Source: a virus (lineage: Duplodnaviria > Caudoviricetes). Taken from it: 64,000 bases of DNA. Positions within the stretch are counted from its first letter, which is position 1. Each line of letters starts with the position of its first letter. The notes below the pieces were generated by a model. It saw only the letters and a list, made by a program, of their open reading frames with translations. It was not told where the DNA came from and ran no database searches. The position numbers and the translations under genes are program-made. Below, piece by piece: positions 20,442 through 50,291 of the stretch. The stretch lies in the IMG/VR virus record IMGVR_UViG_3300038300_000071, positions 32,001 to 96,000 of that record; one strand, given 5' to 3'.

Positions 20442-20470
20442 TTGACATGTAGGCAATTAAGAAGTATATT
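20442..20470 (+). promoter_or_regulatory. sigma70-type promoter of tRNA operon 1
   Basis: TTGACA-17 nt-TATATT. Confidence 0.85.
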
Positions 20471-20513
20471 TGTGTTATAAGATTTAAAAACAATTTAAAA
20501 AGAGAAAGAAAAA

Positions 20514-20591
20514 ATGTTTAACAAGATTACAGCGATTGAACCTAAAGGGCCGGAAGCGATTAAGCTTTCAGGGCTAGGTGCGTTGCTGTAG
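20514..20591 (+). CDS. attenuator leader peptide 1 (MFNKITAIEPKGPEAIKLSGLGALL)
   Basis: 25 codons between promoter and terminator; K/I/A/E/P/G codons match the downstream tRNAs. Confidence 0.8.
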   Translation: MFNKITAIEPKGPEAIKLSGLGALL

Positions 20592-20620
20592 TGATTTAAA
20601 AAACATTAGTAACAATCTTT

Positions 20621-20659
20621 AAAAGCCCTGAAAGCGTAAAAGCTCTCAGGGCTTTTTTT
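20621..20659 (+). terminator. attenuator terminator 1
   Basis: agccctgaaagc-gtaaaa-gctctcagggct-T run; 5' arm is also perfectly complementary to 20564-20575. Confidence 0.85.
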
Positions 20660-20673
20660 ATGTAAAAATTTAA

Positions 20674-20747
20674 CTGTGTGTATGTCAGTCTGGTAGACAA
20701 CTCCCCTTGGATGGGAGAAGCCGTTCGTTCAAATCGAACCACACAGA
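20674..20747 (+). tRNA. tRNA-Pro(TGG)
   Basis: Cloverleaf; ctccc-ct-TGG-at-gggag. Confidence 0.85.
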
Positions 20748-20758
20748 CTTTTTAAATT

Positions 20759-20832
20759 GGGGAATTAGCTCATTTGGCTAGAGCGCTGCCTTTGCAAGGC
20801 AGAGGTAACGAGTTCGAACCTCGTATTCTCCA
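20759..20832 (+). tRNA. tRNA-Ala(TGC)
   Basis: Cloverleaf, G3:U70, ctgcc-tt-TGC-aa-ggcag. Confidence 0.95.
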
Positions 20833-20927
20833 CTGGTTGGTTTGAGTTTCAGTTAGTATTTTCTGTTCTCATGTAGACAAAAATGGAAAAATGAAGGAAA
20901 GGCAACCTTTTGAAAAAATGTCTATAT

Positions 20928-21002
20928 GCTACGATATGCAAATTAGTTAAGCAGCTTTTCTGATAAAGAAGTGATTTTCAGGTGCAAGTCCTGATCGTAG
21001 TA
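20928..21002 (+). tRNA. tRNA-Ile(GAT)
   Basis: Cloverleaf, ct-GAT-aa loop, variant T loop. Confidence 0.85.
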
Positions 21003-21008
21003 CTTTAA

Positions 21009-21079
21009 GTCTCTATGGTGTAATGGTAGCACAAGCGGTTTTCATCCGCTAGGACTCGGATCGTAACCGTGTAGAGGTA
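21009..21079 (+). tRNA. tRNA-Glu(TTC)
   Basis: agcgg-tt-TTC-at-ccgct, variant T loop. Confidence 0.85.
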
Positions 21080-21161
21080 TTTTAAGAAATAAAAGATGAA
21101 GTATTTAAGAGTTAGATGTAGATTTTAAAAAAAGTGATTGTATAGTAGTTCAAGTAATTAA

Positions 21162-21235
21162 CGGAATGTAGCGCAGTCTGGTAGCGCGTCTCGTTTGGGA
21201 CGAGAAGGTCGCAGGTTCGATCCCTGTCATTCCGA
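21162..21235 (+). tRNA. tRNA-Pro(TGG)
   Basis: Canonical CGG start, tctcg-tt-TGG-ga-cgaga. Confidence 0.95.
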
Positions 21236-21297
21236 TTTTTTAAAAAGAAAATAATAGGACGCAAGTGGGTTCTGAAATATGATAGGGATTTGGTAAA

Positions 21298-21963
21298 ATG
21301 GTAAAGAATTTAAATTTTGTAGTTTTAGCTTTAATTTTGGTTGTTTCTTTTGGTTGTGAGACTTTAGTGAAGAGGAGTTCTCTGGGGTCTTATGAAAAAG
21401 TTCTTTCATGGGGAGAAAGCGAAAAATTATATTATAGTAATTATAATTTTGTATATGTTGAGAGAGGAAAGAGTCATACGTTTGATGGAGTGAGTCGTGT
21501 TTATGATGCGGAGTTGATTGGATCAAGACAGGGAGAGAATTTAACTGTTTCCGAAGTTAGAGTCTTCTACAGAGATAAGTCCAAGTCATTTAAAGTAAAC
21601 AGGCCCGTTCTGAGTTTTGGAAATACTAAAGAGAATGGATATGGAGATAAGATTAAGACAGGCGGAATGCATTACATGTCGGCTGGATATCTTGATGATC
21701 TTTTGGCAGATGTTGGCAGATATAGGAAGTTGCTTGCGGGCAGTTATGAGCATTCTTCTGGCGCTAAAATAGTCCTAGATGAGAATGGAGAGGGTGTTTC
21801 TGGGAGTGAGAAGATTTTATTGTCAAATCAGTTTGGAAGGTCTGATCTTGTACTTACGAATGGACAAAGAAATCTTCCAGTTTTATCATTTGATGAAGGC
21901 GGCATGGTTCTTGGAAACGAGAAACATAAAATAGTTTTCAAGAAGATTAATGTTAAAAAATAA
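21298..21963 (+). CDS. putative lipoprotein
   Basis: Hydrophobic signal peptide ending in SFGC lipobox. Confidence 0.6.
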   Translation: MVKNLNFVVLALILVVSFGCETLVKRSSLGSYEKVLSWGESEKLYYSNYNFVYVERGKSHTFDGVSRVYDAELIGSRQGENLTVSEVRVFYRDKSKSFKVNRPVLSFGNTKENGYGDKIKTGGMHYMSAGYLDDLLADVGRYRKLLAGSYEHSSGAKIVLDENGEGVSGSEKILLSNQFGRSDLVLTNGQRNLPVLSFDEGGMVLGNEKHKIVFKKINVKK

Positions 21964-21979
21964 GATTTATGATTGTTGA

Positions 21980-22098
21980 TCATGCTGCGGTATGGTCGCA
22001 CTTTGATGACATGGCAATTTCGCTACCGCATCAAAGATCGAATTGGATAGCGGTATCCGATTTGACGGAATTGAGCAACTGCCGAAAAGGGTGCTCAC
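21980..22098 (+). ncRNA. unidentified structured RNA (candidate pseudoknot plus two hairpins)
   Basis: GC-richer intergenic island with several complementary pairs. Confidence 0.45.
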
Positions 22099-22100
22099 AA

Positions 22101-22216
22101 CAGTGTATGGCTGATATTGGTTAGGCTCGTCGATATTTATGATTACTAAATACACATTTAATGTGGCGGTGATTTCTATGATCTTCGATATTTGGGTTCG
22201 ATTCCCGAAACACTGA
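22101..22216 (+). ncRNA. tRNA-like RNA with expanded anticodon arm
   Basis: cagtgt/acactg acceptor, D arm, GGTTCGATTCC T arm, roughly 60 nt central domain. Confidence 0.6.
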
Positions 22217-22242
22217 TAGTTTTGAAAAGAAGAGTAGTATAT

Positions 22243-22314
22243 GCGAAAGTAGCTCAATGGTAGAGCACCATCCTTCCAAGTTGGTTGTTGCGGGTTCGAG
22301 TCCCGTCTTTCGCT
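22243..22314 (+). tRNA. tRNA-Gly(TCC)
   Basis: GCG start, ct-TCC-aa, U73. Confidence 0.95.
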
Positions 22315-22604
22315 TTTAGAATTATAAATTGGAGAATCCATAATGGGAATATTTTATTCATATTGCACAAGATGCAATAAACAACTTAGGTATTTTATTG
22401 AGTATGGTCATGATGGAATCGAGTGTGATGTATGTTCTCATTTCAATATCGATAGTGATGTAAAGGGAACACTTTTTAAATATAACAATGGCAGGCCGGA
22501 TGGCGCATTGAATATATGGGGAGAAGAAATAATGGAAAGTAAAATGAAACGAAAGATAAAACATAGCATTTAAAGCCTTCTAAGTTGGGGAGGCAAAAAT
22601 TAAT

Positions 22605-22678
22605 GCCTCCGTAGCTCAGTTGGTTAGAGCATCTGACTTTTAATCAGAATGTCATGGGTTCGAATCCCATCGGGGGCA
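22605..22678 (+). tRNA. tRNA-Lys(TTT)
   Basis: tctga-ct-TTT-aa-tcaga. Confidence 0.95.
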
Positions 22679-23141
22679 CTTTCAAAAGGGAGACGTTCGT
22701 GAACAACATAGATTATTTAAGAGAAGATTTAGCTCGGATTCTAGATAAGAGCAGTAGTCTGAGTTGTGAGTTTCTAAGTGCAGTTCTTGAGTTGAATATT
22801 ATGCGAAGAGAATTTAAAGTTTCGATGGGATCTAATTTTGATGGATTCTTGACAATAGGGTATAAAGAAGTATATAAATAAAAACAAAGAGGAAATAACA
22901 TGGTTTACAGTTTTAATTTTAGTGCGGAAGATGAAGTAGACGTAATTCAAGTTTTGGAAACTAAAAATGGATACGTTTACTTTCAAGATGGTGATAGAAA
23001 GGGAAGAATAGAAGAAAAGTTCTTTGCGATGAACTTTACCCATGTTGAAGCTCCACTGGTATAATAAAAAGAAACAATATATAAAAAGGACTTACTTTAA
23101 ATAGTAAGTCCTTTTTTTGTATAGTAATTATAAAATATACT

Positions 23142-23678
23142 ATGGTGGAAGAAATGTCGGTTCGTAAAGTAATATGGTTAACGGGAATGTCTGGTGCGGG
23201 AAAATCAACTATATCTTCAATGCTTGAAGAGAAGCTTTTGGTTAAAGGGTATAGTGTGAAAATACTAGATGGAGATGAAGTCAGGGAAAATCTAACTTCT
23301 GATCTTGGCTTTAGCAAGAAGGACAGAGATGAAAATGTAAAAAGAATTTCTTATGTGGCTAAATGTATATGCGATGTTGACGGGGTGGCCATAGTTGCTG
23401 CTATTTCTCCATACAAGGATGCAAGGCAGAAGGCTATATCTTTAATTGGTGAAGATAACTTTTTAGGAGTTTTTGTCAAGTGTGATATTGATACGCTGAT
23501 AAGCAGAGATGTTAAGGGTTTGTATGAAAAGGCTATTCGTGGTGACATTCCAAATTTCACAGGAATAAGCGATCCTTATGAAGATCCTTTAGGTTTTGAA
23601 GTTGTTTGTAATACAGCGGTAGAGACTATTGAAGAATCGGCAAACAAGATAATCAAGAAGTTGGAAGGTAAATCCTAA
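23142..23678 (+). CDS. cysC: adenylylsulfate kinase
   Basis: WLTGMSGAGKST, LDGDEVR, ISPY, RDVKGLY, FTGISDPYE. Confidence 0.95.
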   Translation: MVEEMSVRKVIWLTGMSGAGKSTISSMLEEKLLVKGYSVKILDGDEVRENLTSDLGFSKKDRDENVKRISYVAKCICDVDGVAIVAAISPYKDARQKAISLIGEDNFLGVFVKCDIDTLISRDVKGLYEKAIRGDIPNFTGISDPYEDPLGFEVVCNTAVETIEESANKIIKKLEGKS

Positions 23679-23981: not shown

Positions 23982-24980
23982 ATGGGATATATCAAGAATC
24001 CTTCTGATAATGGTCAGTTTTGGAGAGAATCAGCGGCTAATGATAGCGCCTCTGTTTGGCATGGTTTTGATAGTAAAAATAACGGTAAAGACAAATTTTT
24101 CAAATCAGAAACATTGCCAAATAATCCAGATACCTTGAAAGAAACTGGAACTGTTTCTTCTAGTGGCGATAGGCTGTTGGCTGGTGTTTATGGAGATATT
24201 CCAAGTGTTTCTCTTTGGACTCCTGAGTCTATTATTACTGACGTTTGGTTTGATGCTTCTGATTCTAGCACCATTACTGAAATTGGGGGCCGAGTTAGTC
24301 AGTTGGATGACAAGAGTAATAATGCTGTACCTCAGAATATTGCTCAAGGGGTTGGATCGGAGCAGCCACAGACAGGAGTTGACACTTTAAATGGTTTGAA
24401 TGTGCTTACATTCGATGAGGCTTTCGATGAGGGTTTACAAAAGAATGGATGGGATAACATCGGTAAAGCGGGTAGTTTTTCTGTCTTTACTGTTGGGAAG
24501 ATGACGTCGAGTACAAATGGAAGCTTCCTAAACCTTCAAGATGATATGCATACTTACAGAAATAGATTTGATCCATATGGAAAGAGAACGTCGAGCAGTG
24601 TTCCAAAGTCCGTCAGTTATACAGAGCCAAGCTCGGCATACATTCTTAACGGAAATGCAAGATATGATGTGAGTCACACACTTCCTGACAGTTATTTCAA
24701 CGTTTTCATAAATGGTACACAAGAGGGTGTTAATGCCTTCTTCGACAATCCATTGCCAGAGAATGCCCCCAGTCCAAGGCTTGCAATGATGACTGCCAAC
24801 AATCCTGCCATTACAAATAGTGGAATAGTTGCAGAAGTTATAATCACCGAGGATATTGATGAAGTGTCTAGACAGAGAGTGGAAGGCTATTTGGCTTGGA
24901 AGTGGGGATTGGTAGACAGTCTTCCATCTAATCACCCTTATAAAAATAAACCTCCATACATTACTAGCGGAAACTTATAG
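23982..24980 (+). CDS. variable-core paralog 1 (putative LamG/ConA-like virion adhesin)
   Basis: Conserved N-term MGYIKNPSDNGQ...KSETLPN and C-term EGYLAWKWG...HPYK. Confidence 0.7.
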   Translation: MGYIKNPSDNGQFWRESAANDSASVWHGFDSKNNGKDKFFKSETLPNNPDTLKETGTVSSSGDRLLAGVYGDIPSVSLWTPESIITDVWFDASDSSTITEIGGRVSQLDDKSNNAVPQNIAQGVGSEQPQTGVDTLNGLNVLTFDEAFDEGLQKNGWDNIGKAGSFSVFTVGKMTSSTNGSFLNLQDDMHTYRNRFDPYGKRTSSSVPKSVSYTEPSSAYILNGNARYDVSHTLPDSYFNVFINGTQEGVNAFFDNPLPENAPSPRLAMMTANNPAITNSGIVAEVIITEDIDEVSRQRVEGYLAWKWGLVDSLPSNHPYKNKPPYITSGNL

Positions 24981-25043
24981 AGATTAGAGATATTTCTTTT
25001 ATAAAATTCATATTGGTAAATAAATGCTAATATGGAGATTCAA

Positions 25044-25985
25044 ATGGGATATATCAAGAATCCTTCTGATAATGGTCAGTTTTGGAGAGAATCAGCGGCT
25101 AATGACAGCGCTTCTGTTTGGCATGGTTTTGATAGTAAGAATAATGGTAAAGACAAATTTTTCAAATCAGAAACATTGCCAAATAATACAAAGGCTTTAA
25201 GTGAGTCTGGGTCTATTGCTTCTAGTGGTAATAGATTAATTGCTGGGGTTTATGGAGATCAAGCTTCTCTTCCTGCAAGTCTTTGGAATCCTTCTCTGAT
25301 GACATCTGTGGGTTGGTACGATGCTGATGATAGTTCTACAATTACAGAGTCTGCTGGAGCTATTAGCCAATGGGATGATAAGTCTGGGAATGACAATCAT
25401 GCTGTTCAGGGCGTTGGAAGCAAACAGCCAATTTACAATGCAAGTGATCCCGTGTTCGGTGGAAAGCCTTCCATATTGGGCGTTTTGGGTGATTATTTAG
25501 AAACTCCATCTATGTCAATAAATAGAATGTATTTAACTTTATATTTGGACGGTGTGGCAACGGCATGGCCAAATCATAATGCGGTAGTATCAGGGCCTTC
25601 TTTCCGTTTAACGGGTAGAGTTGGTGATGTTCACGTATGGGATGGCCCTAGAGACAATAAGAATTTTGATTTTAATGGAAGTACATTTAGGGATGGAAGT
25701 ACTGTTGATGTTAATTACGATCCAACTGGTTTGCCGATGGCGGGTGACATCTTTAGGATAAACGCTGAAAGCACAAAGACTCAAGTTTGGAGGTTGATGG
25801 GGAATACTCAAACATATACAACTTGGCATGGTGGTTTGGCAGAGGTGATATTTACAGACGGATCAGAGGATTTCAACACACAGCAAAAAATAGAAGGTTA
25901 CCTTGCTTGGAAGTGGGGATTTGTGGACAAGTTTCCAGCTGAGCATCCTTACAAGTCAGCTCCTCCATATATAGATGCTTATTAA
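25044..25985 (+). CDS. variable-core paralog 2
   Basis: Same termini; true start is MGYIK at 25044. Confidence 0.7.
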   Translation: MGYIKNPSDNGQFWRESAANDSASVWHGFDSKNNGKDKFFKSETLPNNTKALSESGSIASSGNRLIAGVYGDQASLPASLWNPSLMTSVGWYDADDSSTITESAGAISQWDDKSGNDNHAVQGVGSKQPIYNASDPVFGGKPSILGVLGDYLETPSMSINRMYLTLYLDGVATAWPNHNAVVSGPSFRLTGRVGDVHVWDGPRDNKNFDFNGSTFRDGSTVDVNYDPTGLPMAGDIFRINAESTKTQVWRLMGNTQTYTTWHGGLAEVIFTDGSEDFNTQQKIEGYLAWKWGFVDKFPAEHPYKSAPPYIDAY

Positions 25986-26054
25986 GATCATTTAAAAATT
26001 ATATTTCTTTTATAAAATTCATGTTAGTAAATAAATGCTAATATGGAGATTTAA

Positions 26055-26996
26055 ATGGGATATATCAAGAATCCTTCTGACAATGGTCAGTCTTGGAGAG
26101 AATCAGCCGCTGATAATTCGGCTATCCGTTGGCATGGTTTCGATAGTAAGAATAATGGTAAAGACAAATTTTTCAAATCAGAAACATTACCAAATGATCC
26201 AGACGCACTTGTTGCTGCTGGAGTCAATGCTTCTAGCGGTGATAGACTATTGGCTGGTGTTTATGGAGATATTCCAAGTGTTAATCTTTGGACTCCTGCT
26301 GGAGTCGTTACAGAACTTTGGCTTGATGCCACCGATGCTTCAACTATTACAGAATTATCTGGATCTGTGAGTCAGTGGGATGATAAGAGTGGTAGCGGTA
26401 ACGACTTCCCTCAGGGAAATGCATCCAGACAACCTATAACGGGAGTAAGAACTCTCAATGGCCTAAATGTTCTCGATTTCGATGGTGGTGATAGCATGCA
26501 AAGAGGGAGTTTGGCGAATGTGGCGAATGACTTCATTATGGTAGGAGTTTGGGATGTAGATTCGGGCGCAACACTGTTTTCAGAAACAGGTTCTCCTCAG
26601 GCTTGGAATGCAACAACTGCTGGTCTCACTACGCAATTGGATGGCACTATGCTTTACTCTGGAGGCACGATAAGCGGAGCAACTGTCGTTTCTTTTGATA
26701 TGAATCCTACGGGCCTTAATGCAGAGGCTTTTGTAAACGGAGAAAGTCAGGCAATACTTGCTCTGACGCAAAGCCTTGGAAATAGTACTGCCCGTATAGC
26801 TGCGAACTTTGTTGGCGGTTCTAATGTAGTTGGAGGAATGGGTGAAATGGTTATCTCCGATGACCGATCAGTAGAAACTCGTCAAAAGATCGAAGGATAC
26901 TTGGCTTGGAAGTGGGGTACGGAATCTGATCTTCCAGTTGGACATCCGTATAAGAACAAACCTCCATATATCACTAGTGGAAGTTTATTAGTTTAA
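26055..26996 (+). CDS. variable-core paralog 3
   Basis: Same conserved termini. Confidence 0.7.
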   Translation: MGYIKNPSDNGQSWRESAADNSAIRWHGFDSKNNGKDKFFKSETLPNDPDALVAAGVNASSGDRLLAGVYGDIPSVNLWTPAGVVTELWLDATDASTITELSGSVSQWDDKSGSGNDFPQGNASRQPITGVRTLNGLNVLDFDGGDSMQRGSLANVANDFIMVGVWDVDSGATLFSETGSPQAWNATTAGLTTQLDGTMLYSGGTISGATVVSFDMNPTGLNAEAFVNGESQAILALTQSLGNSTARIAANFVGGSNVVGGMGEMVISDDRSVETRQKIEGYLAWKWGTESDLPVGHPYKNKPPYITSGSLLV

Positions 26997-27054
26997 AAGG
27001 ATATTTCTTTTATAAAATTCATGTTGGTAAATAAGTGCTAATATGGAGATTTAA

Positions 27055-27996: not shown

Positions 27997-28041
27997 TGGT
28001 GGTTGACTGAATCTTTATAAATACTAACATGGAGTTTTTAA

Positions 28042-28986: not shown

Positions 28987-29044
28987 TAGGATATTTCTTT
29001 TATAACTTTGTATTAGTAAATAAATGCTAACGTGGAGATTTTAA

Positions 29045-30277: not shown

Positions 30278-30306
30278 TTGCAATTAACTATTTATCATGG
30301 TATATT
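30278..30306 (+). promoter_or_regulatory. sigma70-type promoter of tRNA operon 2
   Basis: TTGCAA-17 nt-TATATT. Confidence 0.8.
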
Positions 30307-30362: not shown

Positions 30363-30440
30363 ATGAAATTTTCAAGCTACAATTTAAGCAATTGTTCGAG
30401 TTACTTATATAGTAATTCGTATGATCCTGTGCTTAAATGA
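30363..30440 (+). CDS. attenuator leader peptide 2 (MKFSSYNLSNCSSYLYSNSYDPVLK)
   Basis: 17 consecutive S/Y/N/L/C codons matching the downstream tRNAs. Confidence 0.85.
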   Translation: MKFSSYNLSNCSSYLYSNSYDPVLK

Positions 30441-30465
30441 GGTAGCAAATAATTTTAAATATTTG

Positions 30466-30506
30466 AATCCCCTTTTGAGCTAATCACTCAGAAGGGGATT
30501 TTTTTT
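30466..30506 (+). terminator. attenuator terminator 2
   Basis: aatccccttttgag-ctaatca-ctcagaaggggatt plus T run. Confidence 0.85.
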
Positions 30507-30519
30507 GTTTGGATTTTAT

Positions 30520-30609
30520 GGAGATAGTCCGGCATGGACGAGGACACTGTTTTGAAAGCAGCTGCGCACTAATACGGCGTCGAGGGTTCGATTCCCTCTG
30601 TCTCCGCCA
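30520..30609 (+). tRNA. tRNA-Ser(TGA)
   Basis: Long variable arm, G73, encoded CCA. Confidence 0.9.
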
Positions 30610-30641
30610 TTTTTAAAAGATAGGAAAGTAAGAAGTTAAAT

Positions 30642-30714
30642 GAACAATTGGCCGATTGGATATAGGCGCAGGATTGCAAACCCTGTTAGGCGAGTTCGAT
30701 TCTCGCATTGTTCT
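30642..30714 (+). tRNA. tRNA-Cys(GCA)
   Basis: tt-GCA-aa loop, U73. Confidence 0.9.
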
Positions 30715-30718
30715 CTAA

Positions 30719-30808
30719 GGAATGGTATAACGAAATTGGTATCGTCGCTGGTTGCTAACCAGTTCAGCAGGTTAAATGGCTGTGTGGGTTCGAGTCCCAC
30801 TCATTCCG
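30719..30808 (+). tRNA. tRNA-Ser(GCT)
   Basis: gctgg-tt-GCT-aa-ccagt, long variable arm, G73. Confidence 0.9.
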
Positions 30809-30828
30809 CTTTAATGAAGAAGTTTGAA

Positions 30829-30905
30829 GTGTATATTTGTCCAAGGTGGCGATATGTTACGCATTGTAGTTCAGGAACTAGGTTCGAGTCCTAGCTTATA
30901 TGCAC
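30829..30905 (+). ncRNA. tRNA-like RNA without a canonical anticodon loop
   Basis: gtgtatat/atatgcac stem and ctagGTTCGAGTCctag T arm; no 7-nt anticodon loop. Confidence 0.5.
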
Positions 30906-30913
30906 TTTTTTTT

Positions 30914-30986
30914 GATGGAGTAACCAAATTGGTATTGGTCTTGCCTGTTAAGCAAGTATGAGTGAGTTCGATTCTCATCTCCATCT
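30914..30986 (+). tRNA. tRNA-Asn(GTT)
   Basis: cttgc-ct-GTT-aa-gcaag; atypical U73. Confidence 0.8.
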
Positions 30987-30990
30987 TTTT

Positions 30991-31062
30991 AGGCGTGTAT
31001 CTCAATGGTAGAGACTTCGGTTGTTACCCGAAAGGTTGCTGGTTCGAGTCCAGCCGTGCCTG
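30991..31062 (+). tRNA. tRNA-Asn(GTT)
   Basis: ttcgg-tt-GTT-ac-ccgaa, G73. Confidence 0.85.
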
Positions 31063-31078
31063 TTGTTAGTAAGAATAA

Positions 31079-31160
31079 GCCGCTGTGGGGGAATTGGCAT
31101 ACCCGACGAGTTTAAGCCTCGTTGCCTTTGTGCATGAGAGTTCGAATCTCTCCAGCGGTA
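31079..31160 (+). tRNA. tRNA-Leu(TAA)
   Basis: acgag-tt-TAA-gc-ctcgt, variable arm, A73. Confidence 0.9.
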
Positions 31161-31167
31161 TTAACAT

Positions 31168-31241
31168 AGCTCTGTAGCCGAATTGGCATAGGCGGCAGTC
31201 TCAAAAACTGTAATTTACAGGTTCGAGTCCTGTCAGAGCTA
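31168..31241 (+). tRNA. tRNA-Leu(CAA), short variable loop
   Basis: gcagt-ct-CAA-aa-actgt, A73. Confidence 0.85.
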
Positions 31242-31245
31242 CTAT

Positions 31246-31320
31246 GTATTCATAGCTTAATGGTAAAGCGCAGTAGCAAATTGTATGAGCAAGATGTTGG
31301 TTCGATTCCAGCTGAATACG
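31246..31320 (+). ncRNA. tRNA-like RNA with aberrant anticodon arm
   Basis: Perfect acceptor, D and T arms; anticodon arm closes only a 5-nt loop. Confidence 0.55.
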
Positions 31321-31339
31321 TTAATGGAAATAAATATAA

Positions 31340-31421
31340 GTCGTCGTATATGTCTAAGGAGGACATCCAGTCTGTAAAACTGGCGCTTTGAGCTCGGTGG
31401 GATCGTTACCCACAGGCGACA
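31340..31421 (+). tRNA. tRNA-Tyr(GTA)
   Basis: ccagt-ct-GTA-aa-actgg, variable arm. Confidence 0.85.
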
Positions 31422-36140: not shown

Positions 36141-36169
36141 TTGACATGTAAAGAAGTTAGAAGTATACT
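36141..36169 (+). promoter_or_regulatory. sigma70-type promoter of tRNA operon 3
   Basis: TTGACA-17 nt-TATACT. Confidence 0.85.
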
Positions 36170-36206: not shown

Positions 36207-36287
36207 ATGAAAAGCCAAGTGATAGTCATAGATAGAGTGAGACGACAGGATTCTGATCGTCAAGTTCTGCGTGTGTCTAATGGCTAA
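36207..36287 (+). CDS. attenuator leader peptide 3 (MKSQVIVIDRVRRQDSDRQVLRVSNG)
   Basis: Q/V/I(ATA)/D/R codons match the downstream tRNAs. Confidence 0.85.
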   Translation: MKSQVIVIDRVRRQDSDRQVLRVSNG

Positions 36288-36309: not shown

Positions 36310-36349
36310 AAAAAGCCCTTAGATGTAAAAATCTAAGGGCTTTTTTTTT
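36310..36349 (+). terminator. attenuator terminator 3
   Basis: agcccttagat-gtaaaa-atctaagggct plus T run. Confidence 0.88.
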
Positions 36350-36395
36350 GGATTGATTTGACTTAGTATGAAAGAAGGATAAAGTAAGTAAATAA

Positions 36396-36469
36396 GCACG
36401 AGTAGCTCAATTGGTTAGAGCATCTGGTTTACACCCAGAAGGTTGTGGGTTCGAGTCCCTCTTCGTGTA
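36396..36469 (+). tRNA. tRNA-Val(TAC)
   Basis: tctgg-tt-TAC-ac-ccaga. Confidence 0.92.
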
Positions 36470-36478
36470 TTTAAAGAG

Positions 36479-36551
36479 GCAGCTATGGTGAAATGGATTA
36501 TCACCTTTCTCTACGAAAGAAAAGTTCTGAGTTCGAATCTCAGTAGCTGTA
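36479..36551 (+). tRNA. tRNA-Arg(ACG)
   Basis: tttct-ct-ACG-aa-agaaa. Confidence 0.9.
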
Positions 36552-36627
36552 TTAAAAGTGAAAGAAAGTTAGAATGATAGATTGAAATATTTACAATAGG
36601 ATGTAGTGTAGTTAAAGAAATTTTAAT

Positions 36628-36821
36628 CGATGGATAACTCAATTGGTATGAAGTGAAGAACAGAAAGATATTCTAGAATGTCTTCCTGTAAGTAGCGTAA
36701 TTATTAGATTACTTTTTAGTAGGGTTTGATTCCCTAACTTGATTCGTCAAGATTGTAATCTAATTAGAGTGCCTAGAGTTGTATCTAGGAAGTGGAGGTT
36801 CGAGTCCTTCTCCATCGGCCA
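36628..36821 (+). ncRNA. tRNA-like RNA with roughly 115 nt D-loop insertion and 8-nt anticodon loop, ending GCCA
   Basis: cgatgga/tccatcg acceptor, actc...gagt D stem, T arm, encoded CCA. Confidence 0.6.
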
Positions 36822-36847
36822 TTTTAAAGAAAGAAAAGAATATGTAT

Positions 36848-36922
36848 GCTCCGGTAGCTCAGTTGGATTAGAGCATCTGCCTTCTAAGCAGAAAGTCCTT
36901 GGTTCGAGTCCAAGTCGGAGTA
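36848..36922 (+). tRNA. tRNA-Arg(TCT)
   Basis: tctgc-ct-TCT-aa-gcaga. Confidence 0.95.
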
Positions 36923-37308
36923 CTTTTAAGAAAGTAAGGAAAGAAGATGGAATATGTTATTAAGACAGGAATTTATTACTTTATGTTTTCAGGATTGCAC
37001 ACATGTACTACAAATTGTATAGAAGGTGCAACTAAGATTACTAATATAAATCATCTGAATAAAATGCTGAAATATGTCAGTACGAAATTTGAAGATGTGT
37101 CTTACGAGAAGGTGTAGAAATGAAAGAGATTTATCACTGTTCTTTGACCCGTATGGAAGATCTTTTGAATGCAGTAGATGAAGGATGTTTGTATGTGTAT
37201 GATACTTTCCCCGCATCGTCTTGGAGGGAGAAAGAAGATGAAAGAATGAGAGGGAAGCTGGAAAGACACTTTTCTGGAAAAGGAGATTGATGTAAAGAAT
37301 AAATTTAA

Positions 37309-37382
37309 GGGATTTTAGCTCAGTTGGTTAGAGCGGCGCTCTCATAAAGCGAAGGTCGTGGGTTCGAGTCCCTCAAGTCCCA
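37309..37382 (+). tRNA. tRNA-CAT, probably Ile2 (lysidine, reads AUA)
   Basis: ct-CAT-aa loop, GGG acceptor start; leader 3 uses only ATA Ile codons and has no internal Met. Confidence 0.8.
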
Positions 37383-37440
37383 CTTAGCAAGTGAAATGAT
37401 TAATGTGTGATAAAGAATATTATAGATGGAAAGTAGTTCT

Positions 37441-37517
37441 GGGGTTAGAAGGTTTATAAGAAGTAAAAAACCGCATGCGGCATATTTCTTATCTGAGTTC
37501 AAGTCTCAGTAGCTCCA
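37441..37517 (+). ncRNA. D-arm-less tRNA-like RNA resembling a tmRNA tRNA-like domain
   Basis: GGGGTTA/TAGCTCC-A with G3:U70, unpaired D region, long stem, T arm. Confidence 0.5.
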
Positions 37518-37519
37518 TT

Positions 37520-37649
37520 AGTTCTAAGAGTACGATGGAAAGTACAGGCAGTGAGTAAGTCCTAAGATGCAGAAGTCGCGAACTGCTGAGAATTCTAGCG
37601 AACGATTCCCCGAAAGGGATGGATATGGGTTCAAATCCCATTGGAACTA
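37520..37649 (+). ncRNA. tRNA-like RNA with multibranched central domain
   Basis: agttcta/tggaact acceptor, gtac/gtac D arm, atgggTTCAAATcccat T arm. Confidence 0.55.
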
Positions 37650-37823
37650 TTAAGGCACTATTACAGGCCTTGTGCGCACAAAAGCGATTAGACTATTATG
37701 CTCTGTCGCAGTATAGGAAGTTATGAAATGGGATTATGGCGTCGTATCATGATTTTAGGAAGTAATTTTTGAAATACTTATATTGCATAGCAGCGGCGGT
37801 TGTAAGCGGTATAAGTATATTTT

Positions 37824-37897
37824 GGCGATGTAGCTCAATTGGCTAGAGCACTGCCCTGTCACGGCAGACGTTGCGGGTTCGAATCCCGTCATTGCCG
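37824..37897 (+). tRNA. tRNA-Asp(GTC)
   Basis: ctgcc-ct-GTC-ac-ggcag, G73. Confidence 0.95.
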
Positions 37898-38114
37898 CTT
37901 TTAAGTAAAGGAAGGTGTTATGGAAGTTAAAGCAGAAAGATTCTATAGGGATCAGATACGATTGGGACTTTATAAGCTACCAAGTGGATGGTTGGATAAG
38001 TTTGATAGAATATATGGCTCTGTCGAAAAAGTACCTGTTGATAAGTTGGATTCAGCTTTAGGTTTGGTAGAGAGAAGTTTGTTAAGTTTAAAAATTAAAT
38101 AGTAGGTTGAGTTT

Positions 38115-38666
38115 ATGTTTGTAGAATCAGGTGATCATGTTCATAGTTTTGGTTGGATTGGAGTTCCTATTGAAGGAACTCAAAAGGATATGCTGTTGTC
38201 GATAGCGAATAAGATAGACAAGGAAGATTTATTCGAAGAAGACGATGATACTGGAATCGAAGAAGATAGCCATGTGACAGTTCTTTATGGAGTTCATGAT
38301 AAACAGAATTTCAAAGTAAAGGCATTGCTTGGATCTGTATTGCAAATGAATGGAGAGCTTGTAGGACTTCATATATTTGAAAATGAAAGATATGATGTTT
38401 TGGTCGTTAAGGTTGAAAGCGAAGACCTGAAAGATTTAAACAAAAAGTTGAAAGACGGTCTTAAGTATACTAATGACTATCCAGAATATAAGGCACATGC
38501 TACAGTCGCATACCTGAAGTCTGGAACAGGGAAAAAGTATGTAGAAGATTTTAAGAAAGTCGATTGCGTGTTTGATAGAGTTTTTTACAACAATTCTGAC
38601 AATACGCACAACGAGAAGATTGAGCTTAAGAAGAATGACATTGATGAAATGTTGAAAGGAATTTAA
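38115..38666 (+). CDS. 2H phosphoesterase, Acb1/T4 gp57B-like
   Basis: HVTVLYG and YKAHATVAY HxT motifs. Confidence 0.75.
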   Translation: MFVESGDHVHSFGWIGVPIEGTQKDMLLSIANKIDKEDLFEEDDDTGIEEDSHVTVLYGVHDKQNFKVKALLGSVLQMNGELVGLHIFENERYDVLVVKVESEDLKDLNKKLKDGLKYTNDYPEYKAHATVAYLKSGTGKKYVEDFKKVDCVFDRVFYNNSDNTHNEKIELKKNDIDEMLKGI

Positions 38667-38676
38667 AAGTATTCAT

Positions 38677-38748
38677 TGCTCTGTGGTGTAATTGGTAACA
38701 CTTTGCCTTTTGACGGCAACATTACAGGTTCAAGCCCTGTCGGAGCAT
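38677..38748 (+). tRNA. tRNA-Gln(TTG)
   Basis: U1:A72, ttgcc-tt-TTG-ac-ggcaa. Confidence 0.9.
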
Positions 38749-41866: not shown

Positions 41867-41884
41867 AAATTAAATTAAAGAGTC

Positions 41885-46337: not shown

Positions 46338-46366
46338 TTGCAAATTAAGAGTTGTTAAAGTATATT
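46338..46366 (+). promoter_or_regulatory. sigma70-type promoter of tRNA operon 4
   Basis: TTGCAA-17 nt-TATATT. Confidence 0.8.
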
Positions 46367-46410
46367 GTTAAATAACGAAAGATTAAAATTTATTTAAGAG
46401 AAGTAGAAAA

Positions 46411-46497
46411 ATGAAAAACTTTACAGAAAACACAACACATCTAGGCCTTGTACTTCATGGTACGTGGTTTATGGGTTGTATTGGGTTTTCTGAATAA
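46411..46497 (+). CDS. attenuator leader peptide 4 (MKNFTENTTHLGLVLHGTWFMGCIGFSE)
   Basis: F/T/H/L(CTN)/G(GGY)/W/M codons match the downstream tRNAs. Confidence 0.85.
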   Translation: MKNFTENTTHLGLVLHGTWFMGCIGFSE

Positions 46498-46523
46498 GTA
46501 TATTTTTACATATATAGTTTTAG

Positions 46524-46557
46524 AAAGCCCTTTGAGAAATCCTCAAAGGGCTTTTTT
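46524..46557 (+). terminator. attenuator terminator 4
   Basis: aaagccctttgag-aaatc-ctcaaagggcttt plus T run. Confidence 0.88.
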
Positions 46558-46563
46558 GTTTTT

Positions 46564-46636
46564 AGGGAAGTAGCATAATTGGTAGTGCAGTGGATTCCAA
46601 ATCCAAAGGTTGTGAGTTCGAGTCTCTCCTTCCCTG
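46564..46636 (+). tRNA. tRNA-Trp(CCA)
   Basis: tt-CCA-aa loop, G73. Confidence 0.93.
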
Positions 46637-46943
46637 CTTAAAGATAAAGGAAAGAAAAAAAATGATTACGATTAAAGATTTTTGCGAGAAGCATGAAATA
46701 GAGAGAAGAGTAGAGAAGTATGGTGATTATAGCGATTTGTATGTGGATATTTGTAAAAGGTATAAATCGGAAGTAGAGGTTTGGTTTGAGATGGGTGCTG
46801 ATGGAAATGATTGCAAGCATATGTTAAGATATTATAAGGAAGGAGATTTGAAGGAATACTTTAAAGAGTTTTATGGTTTTACAGAGGAGATTCCAGAAGG
46901 GATGTTATCTGTAAGTGATAGTGAAGAAGTGGAGTAAAGATAA

Positions 46944-47017
46944 GGCGTGTTAGCTCAGTTCGGTAGAGCGGTTGATTGAAGCCCAACAGGTCACTGGTTC
47001 AAATCCAGTACGCGCCA
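46944..47017 (+). tRNA. tRNA-Phe(GAA)
   Basis: tt-GAA-gc loop, A73. Confidence 0.9.
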
Positions 47018-47019
47018 CT

Positions 47020-47092
47020 TCCAGAGTAGCCTAATTGGTAAGGCGACAGATTGTGACTCTGTTAATTGCGGGTTCGAGTCCCGTCTCTGGAC
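47020..47092 (+). tRNA. tRNA-His(GTG)
   Basis: acaga-tt-GTG-ac-tctgt, C73; no encoded G-1. Confidence 0.9.
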
Positions 47093-47094
47093 TT

Positions 47095-47180
47095 TGGATG
47101 ATGCACGACTGTCTTAAGGCAGTTAGGATAAGGCGCTCCGATATAAAGGAGAGATTCGTTGGTGAAAATCCAGCCATCTA
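47095..47180 (+). ncRNA. degenerate tRNA-like RNA
   Basis: tggatg/catcta stem, three hairpins, 8-nt central loop. Confidence 0.4.
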
Positions 47181-47205
47181 TTTTTTGAAGAAGAAAGAAA
47201 TTTAT

Positions 47206-47278
47206 GCATGTGTAGCTCAGTTGGTAGAGCAATGGATTTGTAACCCATAGGTCAGGAGTTCGAGCCTCCTCTCATGCT
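47206..47278 (+). tRNA. tRNA-Thr(TGT)
   Basis: tt-TGT-aa loop. Confidence 0.9.
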
Positions 47279-47283
47279 TACAT

Positions 47284-47356
47284 AAGTATGTAGCTCAATT
47301 GGTAGAGCATCTGAATCATAATCAGAATGTTGCAGGTTCGAGTCCTGTCATGCTTA
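47284..47356 (+). tRNA. tRNA-Met(CAT), elongator type
   Basis: tctga-at-CAT-aa-tcaga; paired 1:72, no GGG/CCC anticodon stem. Confidence 0.8.
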
Positions 47357-47360
47357 CTAT

Positions 47361-47434
47361 GTCAGTGTAGCTCAATTGGCTAGAGCATCTGGTTGCCAAT
47401 CAGAAGGTTGCAGGTTCGAGTCCTGTCACTGATA
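47361..47434 (+). tRNA. tRNA-Gly(GCC)
   Basis: tctgg-tt-GCC-aa-tcaga. Confidence 0.85.
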
Positions 47435-47483
47435 TTGAAGTTTAGGAAATGTTAAATTAAAATTATTTACATGGGACTTACAG

Positions 47484-47975
47484 ATGCGATCAAAGAAGGG
47501 GTTGACGGCGAAGGATATAACTGCTGGCATATTTAAGCATTTTCATAAGAAGAGCAAGTGGATAATTGAAAGTATCTACTTGCTTTTTGACAGTGAGAGT
47601 GACGTTGTAACGATGTCAAAAGCAGGATATATTACAGAGTATGAGGTAAAAGTTGCGCTGAGTGACTTTAAAAGAGACATGGCAAAGAGGTATAAGATGG
47701 GAAGAGTGTCTAAGAATAAGCATTCTGCGTTATCTAGCGGTAAGACGGGAATAAAGCACTTTTACTTCTGTGGCCCAAAGGATATGATACCTTTAGAGCT
47801 TATACCGAGTCATGCAGGCTTAATGGAATTCTGGAAGCAAGGAGGAAGGGTGAGGTATAGGATTGTAAAGAAAGCTCCTACTCTTGTGAACGCGACTAAG
47901 GCGTCTTTTAAAATGGAGAAGAAAATTATAACTTCTATGAAGTGGAAGTACATGAACAAAGTGATGAAAGAGTAA
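47484..47975 (+). CDS. PD-(D/E)XK nuclease-like protein (MmcB-like)
   Basis: ESDV...EYEVKVALSDFKRD. Confidence 0.65.
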   Translation: MRSKKGLTAKDITAGIFKHFHKKSKWIIESIYLLFDSESDVVTMSKAGYITEYEVKVALSDFKRDMAKRYKMGRVSKNKHSALSSGKTGIKHFYFCGPKDMIPLELIPSHAGLMEFWKQGGRVRYRIVKKAPTLVNATKASFKMEKKIITSMKWKYMNKVMKE

Positions 47976-48074
47976 AAGATGTTGAAGACTAAGAAATAGA
48001 GTGTTAAATTAATATAGTGGAGTTGAAAATTATAGGACTGCCATTATAGTAATTTAGAAATAAGGAAGTTGGCT

Positions 48075-48266
48075 ATGGATTACAATGTAATAGTTTTTAA
48101 AGAGGATGGAGATTTTATTGCAACGTGCAAGGAGATGCCTAGCATTTCGGGAATAGGAGACACAAAGCTGAAGGCAATAGAAGAGTTTCACATTGCAATT
48201 TCTCTTGCAAAAGAGATTATGGATGAGCAGGGAACTCCAATGCCGGAAAGAATTGATGGAGTATAA
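48075..48266 (+). CDS. HicB-like antitoxin (solo)
   Basis: F.ATC.EMP.ISG.GDT..KAIEE...G.PMP pattern. Confidence 0.7.
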   Translation: MDYNVIVFKEDGDFIATCKEMPSISGIGDTKLKAIEEFHIAISLAKEIMDEQGTPMPERIDGV

Positions 48267-48722
48267 GTGGTTTTTTTGTTTTCCTTGTGGTGGGCCGTCC
48301 ATGATTTGCATGGATTGCGATGCTTCAATTTGTACAGGAGGTTGTAGGCATGCTACGGAGTTATTTGAAGTTGAGCCTAAGTTTTGGGATGAAGACGACA
48401 CAAAGGACGTGGGAGATATTACACCTAAGAGAGCGAAAGAGTTGATAGGCGAATGGAATGACTATGGAAGGAAGATGAGGAGTGGTTGTCTTGGAATACT
48501 TGAGAAAAAAGAAATATGAGGTGTAGATTGACATGTTGTTCAGATCTCTTGGAAAGGAAGCACTTTGGTTGGGTTCTTAGTCGATCTTGGGATGTTTATC
48601 GCAAGAGGTGTCTTATAGATTTCGAAACTTTAGATGGTGAAAGTTTTACAGTTCCGATTGAAAATCTTTGTGGAGATTCTCCGAGTGGATTTTTGATTGT
48701 GGGAAATAAAGAAGAAATACAC

Positions 48723-48795
48723 GCCAGTGTAGCTCAGTTGGTAGAGCAGGTCACTTGTAATGATCAGGTCAACGGTTCGAATCCGTTCACTGGCT
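48723..48795 (+). tRNA. tRNA-Thr(TGT)
   Basis: ggtca-ct-TGT-aa-tgatc. Confidence 0.95.
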
Positions 48796-49059
48796 TTAGG
48801 AAAGAAGGAATAGATTAAGTGGTTATAGATGTAGAGATTGATAATTGTTGTGGTGGAGGTCATTGTGGGCCAGTACCCGGATATACTTATGAATGTCCAG
48901 TATGTGAGAAGAGCACGATGTGTAGGACTAGGAATGGACGTGCTCTTGATGTTGATGAAAGTTTAACTTGCTCATTATGCAAGGAAGAAATAACAGTTGT
49001 AGAAGTGTTGAGTGATGGAACATTCGATTTTGATTTTGAATTGTAAGTAAGTTTATTAT

Positions 49060-49169
49060 GCCGGAGTAGCTTAATTGGTTAGAGCATAAGTGAAGCGCAT
49101 CATCGGAGACTAGTTAATCCTTTGTTGCTAGTATCTTAAAGGTTGCAGGTTCAAGTCCTGCCTCCGGCA
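49060..49169 (+). ncRNA. tRNA-like RNA with roughly 40 nt insert replacing the anticodon loop
   Basis: Perfect acceptor, D and T arms; no 7-nt anticodon loop. Confidence 0.65.
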
Positions 49170-49191
49170 CTTTTTAGGTAATAAGTTTTAT

Positions 49192-49294
49192 GCGGGAGCC
49201 TGTTGGTTAGGGCTTAGTGAAGAGTATTTTGATGCACCTGGTTAAATCATAATGCAAGTAGCTTTGTACGGGGGTTCGAATCCCTCCTTCTGCT
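49192..49294 (+). ncRNA. tRNA-like RNA with elongated central stem
   Basis: gcgggag/cttctgc acceptor, gggggTTCGAATccctc T arm. Confidence 0.5.
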
Positions 49295-49350
49295 TTGGTT
49301 TTAAAGTATAGGCGAATTAAATAAGATATTTTGGGAAAGGGTGAAACTGA

Positions 49351-49986
49351 ATGATTAGTCATAAACATAAGTTTATTTTTTCGCATGTTCCCAAGGTTGC
49401 TGGAACATCGATAGAGATTTCTTTAAGGCCATATGATGATTCTGGCTTTAAGTGGGGATTAAGGAATGATGATTTGGGAAATGCGATTGCAAATCATAAG
49501 GATTATTTTGTATTTGGATTTGTTAGAAATCCTTATGACAGGTTGGTATCGGCGTGGAAGATGTCGAAGGTAAATGGAAAGCATGATATGCCATTTAGGG
49601 ATTATGTGACGTGTGTTGGCAAATTCCTATCTCATGATTATGAAACGTTGATAAAGTTGTACAGAAGTAATAAGTGTTGGAAGAATGGATATCCTTTGAC
49701 GATGAAGGATGCGGGATTTTTAGACCCTGTTCATGATAAGTATCATACTGTATATCAGTGGAACTTTACTTATGGTTGTAAGTTTGTAGGAAGGTATGAG
49801 CGTTTGGATGATGATTTTAAATTGGTATGTGAAGTATTAAAGTTGAATGTTGATGATCTTCGGAGGGGAAATAAGTCTGGGGATGGCAGCAATTACAAAG
49901 AGCATTATGATAAAAATTTGCAATCTCAGGTGTATGAAATGTACAAGCAAGATTTCTTAATGTTTGGTTATCAATACAAGCTGTAG
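49351..49986 (+). CDS. sulfotransferase family 2 protein
   Basis: HVPKVAGTS (5'-PSB), FVRNPYDRLVS (3'-PB), D...FGY. Confidence 0.88.
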   Translation: MISHKHKFIFSHVPKVAGTSIEISLRPYDDSGFKWGLRNDDLGNAIANHKDYFVFGFVRNPYDRLVSAWKMSKVNGKHDMPFRDYVTCVGKFLSHDYETLIKLYRSNKCWKNGYPLTMKDAGFLDPVHDKYHTVYQWNFTYGCKFVGRYERLDDDFKLVCEVLKLNVDDLRRGNKSGDGSNYKEHYDKNLQSQVYEMYKQDFLMFGYQYKL

Positions 49987-50216
49987 TTTGTGCTTAGATA
50001 ATTTTTTTATAATTCTCCAGAAATTATAAAAGGAGATTTAAAAAAATGAAATACGAATGTTTTGATTGCAGTTCAATATTTGACATAGATGCATCCAATG
50101 ATGGAAGTTGTCCAAGTTGTGGAAGTTCTAATGCGGCGCGGTATAATAATGACTATGCTAGATATGATGATGAAGATGAAGAGAGTTATAAAGATGAGTA
50201 TGATGACTAAGTTTGA

Positions 50217-50291
50217 ACCTCTGTGGGCAAATTGGCAAAGTCGCTCCGTTTAGGCCGGAGAGTTTTCTGGGTTCGAGTCCCAGCAGAGGTA
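50217..50291 (+). tRNA. tRNA-Leu(TAG), short variable loop
   Basis: ctccg-tt-TAG-gc-cggag, A73. Confidence 0.85.

Follow-up and report, generated by a model that had tools for sequence, protein, structure and literature searches.

Here, we describe four tRNA operons in a 64,000-nucleotide stretch of phage DNA (IMG/VR record IMGVR_UViG_3300038300_000071; hereafter the window, meaning the whole stretch), each of which lies behind a near-consensus promoter, a short leader open reading frame (ORF) and an intrinsic terminator, and each of whose leaders is built in its middle, the putative sensor zone, largely from the codons read by the tRNAs that follow. We propose that these four units are probably ribosome-mediated transcription attenuators that subject tRNA supply to negative feedback, a mechanism for which we infer leader translation, read-through in response to ribosome stalling and a natural cause of tRNA depletion from the sequence. 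An earlier note on this DNA had read the units as multivalent leader-peptide attenuators matched to their own tRNAs, and this core of its interpretation passed all the computational tests applied. The window comprises bases 32001-96000 of a single 202,452-bp record of 37% G+C that carries nearly all its genes on one strand and all its tRNA genes inside the window. Because genes for the terminase large subunit (TerL), portal, DnaB-type helicase, DNA polymerase and collagen-like tail fibres are present, we regard the record as a large tailed phage; the best match of its TerL among GenBank phages is only 34% identical and belongs to the uncultured huge phage LR745208.1.

Layout and codon match of the four leader units

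Promoter, short ORF, spacer, terminator and tRNAs recur in all four operons where the earlier note had placed them (Table 1). The leader ORFs have 25-28 codons, start with ATG 31-50 nt downstream of the -10 element, have AAA as their second codon in three of four cases and follow purine-rich GAGA-type elements 6-12 nt before the start. From the stop codon to the terminator stem the spacers measure 29, 24, 23 and 25 nt in operons 1-4, each terminator is a hairpin of -20 to -22 kcal/mol with 6-9 U behind it, and the U-tract lies 15, 14, 47 and 7 nt from the first tRNA. Because the gaps of 15, 14 and 7 nt leave no space for a promoter, the tRNAs of operons 1, 2 and 4 can be made only by terminator read-through; a terminator without an intervening promoter thus separates leader and tRNAs in these three operons, and in part in operon 3. 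Across the 202-kb genome, a strong promoter with a strong terminator within 300 nt was seen only at the leaders of operons 1 and 3, in a scan whose filter passed strong promoter-like sites only and below which the promoters of operons 2 and 4 scored.

The match between leader codons and the tRNAs behind them is real and statistically secure. Under strict wobble rules, with the start codon excluded and the use of each codon set in the phage's own genes as background, 14/24, 17/24, 16/25 and 15/27 codons of leaders 1-4 are read by the tRNAs of their own operon (background 0.29, 0.20, 0.20 and 0.16; binomial P 2e-3, 7e-8, 2e-6 and 3e-6), and the combined probability of the four matches is < 1e-18. 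Matches of a leader to any of the other three operons number at most 5, those in the other two frames 1-9, and the values of leaders 2-4 were reached by none of ~44,000 segments of the same length in the phage's own genes. The claim in the earlier note that the central leader codons are those of the downstream tRNAs is therefore upheld as a frame-specific property, and it extends to the choice among synonymous codons. Among the 44 informative codons, defined as those with a synonymous alternative unreadable by the operon's tRNAs, those tRNAs can read 36, as against 24.2 expected from phage usage (P 4.5e-5). Isoleucine is encoded by ATT in leader 1, which precedes tRNA(GAU), and by ATA at both positions in leader 3, which precedes a CAU tRNA; glycine is mostly GGG in leader 1 with tRNA(UCC) and mostly GGC/GGT in leader 4 with tRNA(GCC); and for leucine the sensor zone of leader 2 has TTA where leader 4 has CTA/CTT. 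Of the 26 anticodon species, 25 are matched by a codon in the leader of their operon, and only tRNA(CAA) at 31168-31242 is not. The description of the four units as sensing all 20 amino acids is correct as a description, because their tRNAs span 20/20 amino acids and each of these is represented in its own leader.

Leaders in related phages

A close relative is the metagenomic contig L085, which is syntenic, encodes a flanking protein 74% identical to that of the window and carries the same operons 2, 3 and 4, to which the comparison applies. Over the segment that runs from the leader ORF through the terminator, the two share 97%, 91% and 92% identity (78/78 nt in leader ORF 2), as against 76% for the flanking gene and 58-97% (median ~72%) for the tRNAs; the leaders have diverged less than the tRNAs that follow them. 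The terminators differ in their loops and are unchanged in their stems. All changes in the sensor zones remain within the set decodable by the operon: in leader 3, a Val codon is lost and another gained with the frame kept, which alters the order of Val and Ile, and leader 4 shows a Leu-to-Phe change together with synonymous His and Phe changes. The sole tRNA not sensed by leader 2, tRNA(CAA), is missing from L085.

Co-variation of leader and array is seen in the more distant IMG/VR relatives G003 and G001 (TerL 52-54% identical), in which a single array of Phe, Leu, Ser, Val, Asn, Cys and Tyr tRNAs lies behind a promoter, leader and terminator. Their leader contains 16-17 consecutive codons drawn from exactly L/S/Y/V/C/F/N, and an internal hairpin is common to it and to leader 2 of the window; where Phe and Val tRNAs are grouped with the Ser/Leu/Asn/Cys/Tyr set, the homologous leader has F and V codons. 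The antiterminator strands of G003 and G001 (-17.1 and -15.1 kcal/mol) are not alike, and the difference between them is matched in their terminator arms.

An unbiased scan of 739 short ORFs in all tRNA regions examined placed leaders just 5' of arrays at its top ranks. Phage G014 (412 kb) has a Q/R/E leader ahead of Glu, Glu, Gln, Arg, Arg and Gln tRNAs (P 3e-13), a T/V/A/C/G/W leader ahead of Trp, Cys, Gly, Val, Ala and Thr tRNAs, a Leu-rich leader ahead of three Leu tRNAs and, spotted by eye, a P/M/H/Y leader ahead of Pro, Met, His and Tyr tRNAs. Analogous leaders occur in the huge phages G018 and LR745208.1, and in the cultured jumbo Tunturiibacter phage Tunturi 5 two leaders, at ~231.16-231.25 kb and ~251.57-251.72 kb of PP885688.1, match their arrays (P 1e-3 and 4.5e-5), with antiterminator pairings of ~-15.5 kcal/mol. 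When 11 leaders were permuted against 11 arrays, the diagonal sum of 7.12 (2.97 +/- 0.65 in the shuffles) was reached in 0 of 100,000 shuffles, a figure that is generous because the leaders of the relatives were found partly through their match; the four leaders of the window stand independently of it. Both this permutation of leader codons against downstream anticodons and the inspection of homologous loci for conserved, co-varying leaders had been suggested in the earlier note, and both came out in its favour, the latter through the conservation in L085, the F and V codons in G003 and G001 and the leaders of the further phages.

Searches of the phage collection for near and distant DNA relatives gave short tRNA matches only, and of two flanking-protein searches in IMG/VR one gave no relative and the other two non-syntenic matches without tRNAs. 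As a separate observation, a TTGACAACCGAA-type motif is conserved at the arrays of G018 and Tunturi 5, where it lies downstream of the leader terminator and 15-30 nt ahead of the first tRNA (L082, reverse strand, ~470-495; L081, ~3130-3150; L092, ~1314-1330; L091, ~9600-9615); it has no matching -10 element.

Proposed attenuation and its alternatives

In the mechanism that we propose, host sigma-70 RNA polymerase would start at the near-consensus promoter and transcribe the short leader ORF, whose middle codons, being those read by the tRNAs of the same operon, would act as the sensor zone. During fast decoding the ribosome would arrive at the last codons or the stop codon and cover the antiterminator strand, or after its release let that strand be sequestered; the terminator 23-29 nt further on would then form and transcription would end 7-15 nt before the first tRNA. 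Scarcity of any sensed aminoacyl-tRNA would instead hold the ribosome at the sensor codons, leaving the ORF's 3' end to pair with the 5' arm of the terminator, and the polymerase would enter the array. The new tRNAs would relieve the stall, amounting to negative feedback on decoding capacity through four channels that together span 20 amino acids.

The earlier note had held that the 3' end of every leader ORF can pair with the 5' arm of its terminator. In folds of the transcript up to the terminator loop, and in duplexes compared with random segments and with all genomic terminators, this claim stands strongly for operon 1, where the predicted pairing is excellent (-23.8 kcal/mol), and moderately for operons 3 and 4, where it is plausible (-11.8 and -12.2 kcal/mol), and falls for operon 2, where it is not above chance. 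In the folds without a ribosome, a leader hairpin sequesters the antiterminator strand of operon 1. Once a ribosome occupies codons 6-13, this strand pairs with the 5' arm of the terminator instead, and a ribosome on codons 11-12 lowers the computed probability of the terminator from 0.96 to 0.01. In operons 3 and 4, an upstream stall leaves the antiterminator free and a ribosome at the end of the ORF covers the strand; the antiterminator of operon 4 forms by default and is removed once the ribosome is at the last codons. Ranked by upstream pairing to the 5' arm among 30 strong plus-strand terminators of the genome, the terminator of operon 1 came 1st, that of operon 4 3rd, that of operon 3 4th and that of operon 2 24th, and the chance of finding three of four leader terminators in the top four is ~0.004.

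Several observations weigh against this mechanism. No convincing antiterminator was found in operon 2, whose best pairing (-5.6 kcal/mol) is no better than that of random sequence and which lacks the G-run that forms the antiterminator in the homologous leaders of G003 and G001. When full leader-terminator RNAs were folded at equilibrium with a masked ribosome, the terminator won in all but operon 1, so the switch in the other operons would have to be kinetic, as in classical attenuators. The Shine-Dalgarno elements of the leaders are weak (GAGA-type), and the phage's genes mostly have AGGA/GGAG. In operon 3, the promoter-like site between terminator and first tRNA is conserved, reading TTGACT-16-TATAGT within a conserved block in L085, and may give tRNA expression independent of the attenuator. 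Extra tRNA would be no remedy for a stall caused by amino-acid starvation. Among the relatives, the leaders of G014 and LR745208.1 end 7-51 nt before the first tRNA (except that at L077 2361-2438, ~155 nt upstream of tRNA-Pro) without a U-tract terminator, and codon matching is therefore not always coupled to a terminator switch; the read-out of the leader may differ between lineages, with another mechanism in these two phages. No clear leaders were found at the arrays of G012, G015 and Vibrio phage Va1 and no convincing one at the array of G016, while G002 and several other TerL relatives have no tRNAs. Because four array-bearing phages thus have no convincing leader, the device is not universal, and the codon-matched leader appears to be widespread in this clade within that limit.

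Part of this evidence is what one would expect if the leaders were translated, codon-matched sensors that acted through Rho access, RNA processing or stability, or polymerase pausing, the terminators being leaky insulators: a read-out of this kind would suit the leaders of G014 and LR745208.1 that stand close to their tRNAs without a U-tract terminator, the want of a credible antiterminator in operon 2 and the dominance of the terminators at equilibrium. We nonetheless consider it unlikely for the window, where every leader has a terminator of -20 kcal/mol with 6-9 U at a fixed 23-29 nt, three of the four antiterminator strands sit exactly where a terminating ribosome would cover them, and the terminator stems are invariant relative to L085. 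It is highly improbable, with nothing specific in its favour, that the logic is reversed, such that efficient leader translation would promote read-through and tRNA expression would be self-reinforcing or licensed by working decoding, since the folds show the antiterminator freed by stalls in the sensor zone and not by completed translation; a terminating ribosome covers the antiterminator strand and cannot mask the terminator, because the stop codon lies 23-29 nt from the stem, beyond its reach. Direct contact between RNA and tRNA in the manner of a T-box, in which leader codons would pair with the anticodons of uncharged tRNAs without a ribosome, draws on the complementarity that leader codons necessarily have to the anticodons of the tRNAs that follow, yet we judge it even less probable. 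The match is confined to the frame that opens with the ATG, behind a purine-rich element, and ends with the stop codon at its fixed distance from the terminator, it involves 14-17 consecutive in-frame codons and not one specifier codon, indels between relatives keep the leader frame, and no T-box or other riboswitch was matched at E<=1. Finally, although short ORFs are common in AT-rich DNA and the earlier note chose its ORFs after seeing them, the idea that the leaders are fortuitous and that the terminators merely trim constitutive expression from strong promoters has next to no probability left, given the combined P value, the unbiased scan and the permutation test, the conservation of the leaders beyond that of the tRNAs behind them and the way in which leader composition tracks array content in other phages.

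If the units do act as stall-responsive attenuators, the natural triggers listed in the earlier note can be taken only as a reasonable guess, nothing more, because a ribosome cannot distinguish a missing from an uncharged tRNA. Cleavage of tRNAs by anticodon nucleases or similar host defences, one of the triggers named there, is pure inference. The four operons are not known to follow the target set of any anticodon nuclease, e.g., Tyr/His/Asn/Asp, or Lys alone, and we rejected the idea that their grouping mirrors a particular nuclease. An alternative physiological role fits equally well, namely that tRNA supply is matched to the phage's own codon demand (e.g., ATA makes up 44% of its Ile codons).

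A broader interpretation, which we regard as possible and rather doubtful, is that the leaders constitute a general phage-encoded meter of decoding capacity, whereby host ribosomes would compare tRNA supply with phage demand for each codon group and the matching block would be switched on where supply fails. Were the trigger the loss of host tRNAs, be it to anticodon nucleases, other tRNA-targeting defences or phage-induced shut-off, such a meter would be an inducible circuit for counter-defence and for adaptation to the host. Large phages would have it widely, among them the 202-kb phage described here, huge phages of >400 kb and the cultured Tunturi 5, and it would evolve by co-editing of leader codons as tRNA genes move between arrays.

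Array contents, neighbouring genes and known systems

Rfam together with ARAGORN at a relaxed threshold added three genes to the default list of tRNAs (Table 1): a tRNA-Tyr (31343-31421), a Cys-like sequence (31245-31321) and a tRNA-like gene (49060-49170). The first of these bears out the tRNA-Tyr that the earlier note had placed in operon 2. The extension of operon 4 to the tRNA-Leu(UAG) ending at 50291, likewise claimed there, is supported by a closing terminator at 50405. The tRNA(CAA) of operon 2 is 75 nt long and lacks the long variable arm expected of a tRNA-Leu, and the weak tRNA-like sequences at this operon comprise the Cys-like one and one with anticodon CAU (30829-30903). The tRNA-like gene of operon 4 scores 51.8 bits in Rfam and has ~44 nt in place of a 9-nt anticodon region; possible readings are a tRNA with an intron, a decoy and a pseudogene. 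Neither of the two CAU tRNAs of the window resembles an initiator tRNA, and that of operon 3 is taken as a putative tRNA-Ile2 from the ATA codons of leader 3 and the phage's heavy use of ATA, which are the sole basis of the assignment.

Table 1. Positions of the leader units, their tRNA arrays and the leaders of two related phages (window coordinates unless a contig is named)
Feature	Position	Strand	Description
Operon 1 promoter	20442..20470	+	TTGACA-17-TATATT; A/T-rich stretch upstream; 11/12 consensus matches
Leader ORF 1	20514..20591	+	25 codons; 13 among codons 4-17 are K/I/A/E/P/G
Antiterminator strand 1	20563..20576	+	Just 3' of the sensor codons; 12 perfect bp with the terminator 5' arm (20624-20635)
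Attenuator terminator 1	20621..20662	+	-21.4 kcal/mol and U-tract; followed by tRNA-Pro
Operon 1 tRNAs	20674..22679	+	Pro(UGG), Ala(UGC), Ile(GAU), Glu(UUC), Pro(UGG), Gly(UCC), Lys(UUU); ORFs interspersed
Operon 1 end terminator	23084-23115	+	Strong terminator
Operon 2 promoter	30278..30306	+	TTGCAA-17-TATATT; TG-extended -10; kept in L085
Leader ORF 2	30363..30440	+	25 codons; codons 4-20 an unbroken run of 17 S/Y/N/L/C
Attenuator terminator 2	30465..30508	+	-21.7 kcal/mol and 8 U; followed by tRNA-Ser
Operon 2 tRNAs	30520..31421	+	Ser(UGA), Cys, Ser(GCU), Asn x2, Leu(UAA), odd 75-nt tRNA(CAA), degenerate Cys-like, Tyr(GUA)
Operon 2 end terminator	31429-31468	+	Strong terminator
Operon 3 promoter	36141..36169	+	TTGACA-17-TATACT
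Leader ORF 3	36207..36287	+	26 codons; 18 among codons 4-23 are Q/V/I/D/R; Arg as AGA, CGA/CGT
Antiterminator strand 3	36274..36286	+	Last codons and stop codon; pairs with the terminator 5' arm
Attenuator terminator 3	36311..36353	+	-20.3 kcal/mol and 9 U
Candidate bypass promoter	36358..36385	+	TTGACT-16-TAAAGT between terminator 3 and tRNA-Val; from sequence inspection
Operon 3 tRNAs	36396..38748	+	Val(UAC), Arg(ACG), Arg(UCU), CAU (putative Ile2), Asp(GUC), Gln(UUG); ORFs interspersed
Operon 4 promoter	46338..46366	+	TTGCAA-17-TATATT; L085 counterpart TTGTAA-17-TATATT
Leader ORF 4	46411..46497	+	28 codons; 16 among codons 4-22 are F/T/H/L/G/W/M
Antiterminator strand 4	46478..46491	+	Last ORF codons; pairs with the terminator 5' arm
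Attenuator terminator 4	46523..46561	+	-21.0 kcal/mol and U-tract; followed by tRNA-Trp
Operon 4 tRNAs	46564..50291	+	Trp, Phe, His, Thr(UGU), Met, Gly(GCC), Thr(UGU), insert-bearing tRNA-like gene, Leu(UAG); ORFs interspersed
Operon 4 end terminator	50405-50451	+	Strong terminator
Leaders of G014 and LR745208.1	L078 3302-3421, 6055-6114; L077 2361-2438, 16532-16615; L095-L100		Without U-tract terminator

Other genes of the window lie within or beside the operons. Between tRNA-Asp and tRNA-Gln of operon 3, an ORF at 38115-38666 matches Acb1, which counters the cyclic oligonucleotide-based antiphage signalling system (CBASS), and the 2H phosphoesterase / 2'-5' RNA ligase superfamily; it could be a counter-defence enzyme that degrades cyclic nucleotides or an RNA-end-healing enzyme co-expressed with the tRNAs. 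An adenylylsulphate (APS) kinase gene (23142-23678) directly follows operon 1 and a sulfotransferase gene (49351-49986) lies within operon 4, and the pair points to a sulfation pathway encoded by the phage. Six paralogous ORFs of 313-343 amino acids stand in tandem (23982-30076; 44% overall identity) and share a near-identical N-terminal ~47 residues and a conserved C-terminal motif around a variable middle; two members scanned against Pfam gave no match, and the family looks like a diversified cassette family, possibly for receptor binding. At 53760-53946, an 87-nt class-II-like tRNA with anticodon CUA (amber suppressor type; labelled Pyl by ARAGORN) has its own TGGACA-17-TATAAT promoter and a long hairpin with a U-run just upstream, and no codon-matched leader; TAG is still the stop codon of 28/153 long ORFs. 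Further genes encode a GroEL-type chaperonin (60332-61945), PhoH (52980-53735), an HNH endonuclease (51157-51789) and an N6/N4 DNA methylase (39060-39839).

Phage tRNA genes are usually viewed as constitutive cargo that fixes codon bias or replaces lost host tRNAs. Attenuation as proposed here would mean that a phage gauges decoding failure directly and supplies the tRNAs that are missing, the regulated product being the sensed molecule, and would account both for the grouping of the tRNAs and for strong terminators immediately 5' of arrays. One phage could then adjust to hosts with differing tRNA pools or tRNA-targeting defences. As compact, modular and codon-specific tRNA sensors on consensus sigma-70 promoters, the units would also be usable in synthetic biology, and the purpose of phage tRNAs would become directly testable, including in the cultured pair of Tunturi 5 and Tunturiibacter psychrotolerans X4BP1.

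An Rfam cmscan over 19000-56000 at E<=1 returned tRNAs and chance-level matches only, with no known leader family, T-box or riboswitch; the nearest non-tRNA match was the trpB motif at 46420-46563, below threshold at 34.9 bits against 59 bits (E 0.25). Full-text literature searches, which cover few subscription journals, gave no account of leader-peptide control of tRNA arrays. Work on tRNA depletion and anticodon nucleases treats phage tRNAs as replacements for host tRNAs lost during infection. The phage-tRNA literature has the same cargo in view, in large sets that span all amino acids, but treats the arrays as expressed cargo. Compensation of codon usage is the role put forward by Bailly-Bechet et al. 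2007, as cited in PMC11924767, and the huge-phage paper and the Tunturi 5 paper do not mention leaders, attenuators or terminators at tRNA arrays.

Among known regulators, T-box riboswitches likewise sense the state of a specific tRNA and choose between terminator and antiterminator ahead of translation-related genes, but in them a single specifier codon and a conserved T-box sequence contact the uncharged tRNA directly and no ribosome takes part, whereas the phage units have an in-frame ORF of many sensing codons. The trpL, hisL, pheL and leuL leaders share with operons 1 and 3 a 1:2 hairpin that sequesters the antiterminator in the absence of a ribosome, and the competition of 2:3 with 3:4 pairing; they contain runs of a single codon where the phage leaders contain mixed runs, and operons 4 and 2 differ from them in having no clear 1:2 hairpin and operon 2 also in having no clear 2:3 pairing. 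The pheM leader of pheST is the nearest precedent for ribosome-mediated attenuation of a component of the translation apparatus, although it concerns one amino acid and a protein-coding operon, whereas in the phage units the product is the sensed tRNA itself, which would close a direct feedback loop. By design, the units belong with the leader-peptide attenuators and are closest to the multivalent enterobacterial ones, the ilvGMEDA leader with its Ile/Leu/Val codons and the thr leader with its Thr/Ile codons. Common to both are a promoter-proximal ORF that holds the regulatory codons of several amino acids, an intrinsic terminator and, as proposed for the phage, an antiterminator that depends on ribosome position and read-through upon a stall at any sensed codon. 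The two have no sequence relationship, in that no Rfam leader family was matched, and the ilv and thr leaders control biosynthetic enzymes, whereas the phage-borne units would control tRNAs and sense 5-7 amino acids per leader with a match at the level of isoacceptors, place the antiterminator strand inside the last codons of the ORF and split 20 amino acids among four units. The best explanation of the four units is that a known regulatory principle has been put to a new use, its output here being tRNA genes.

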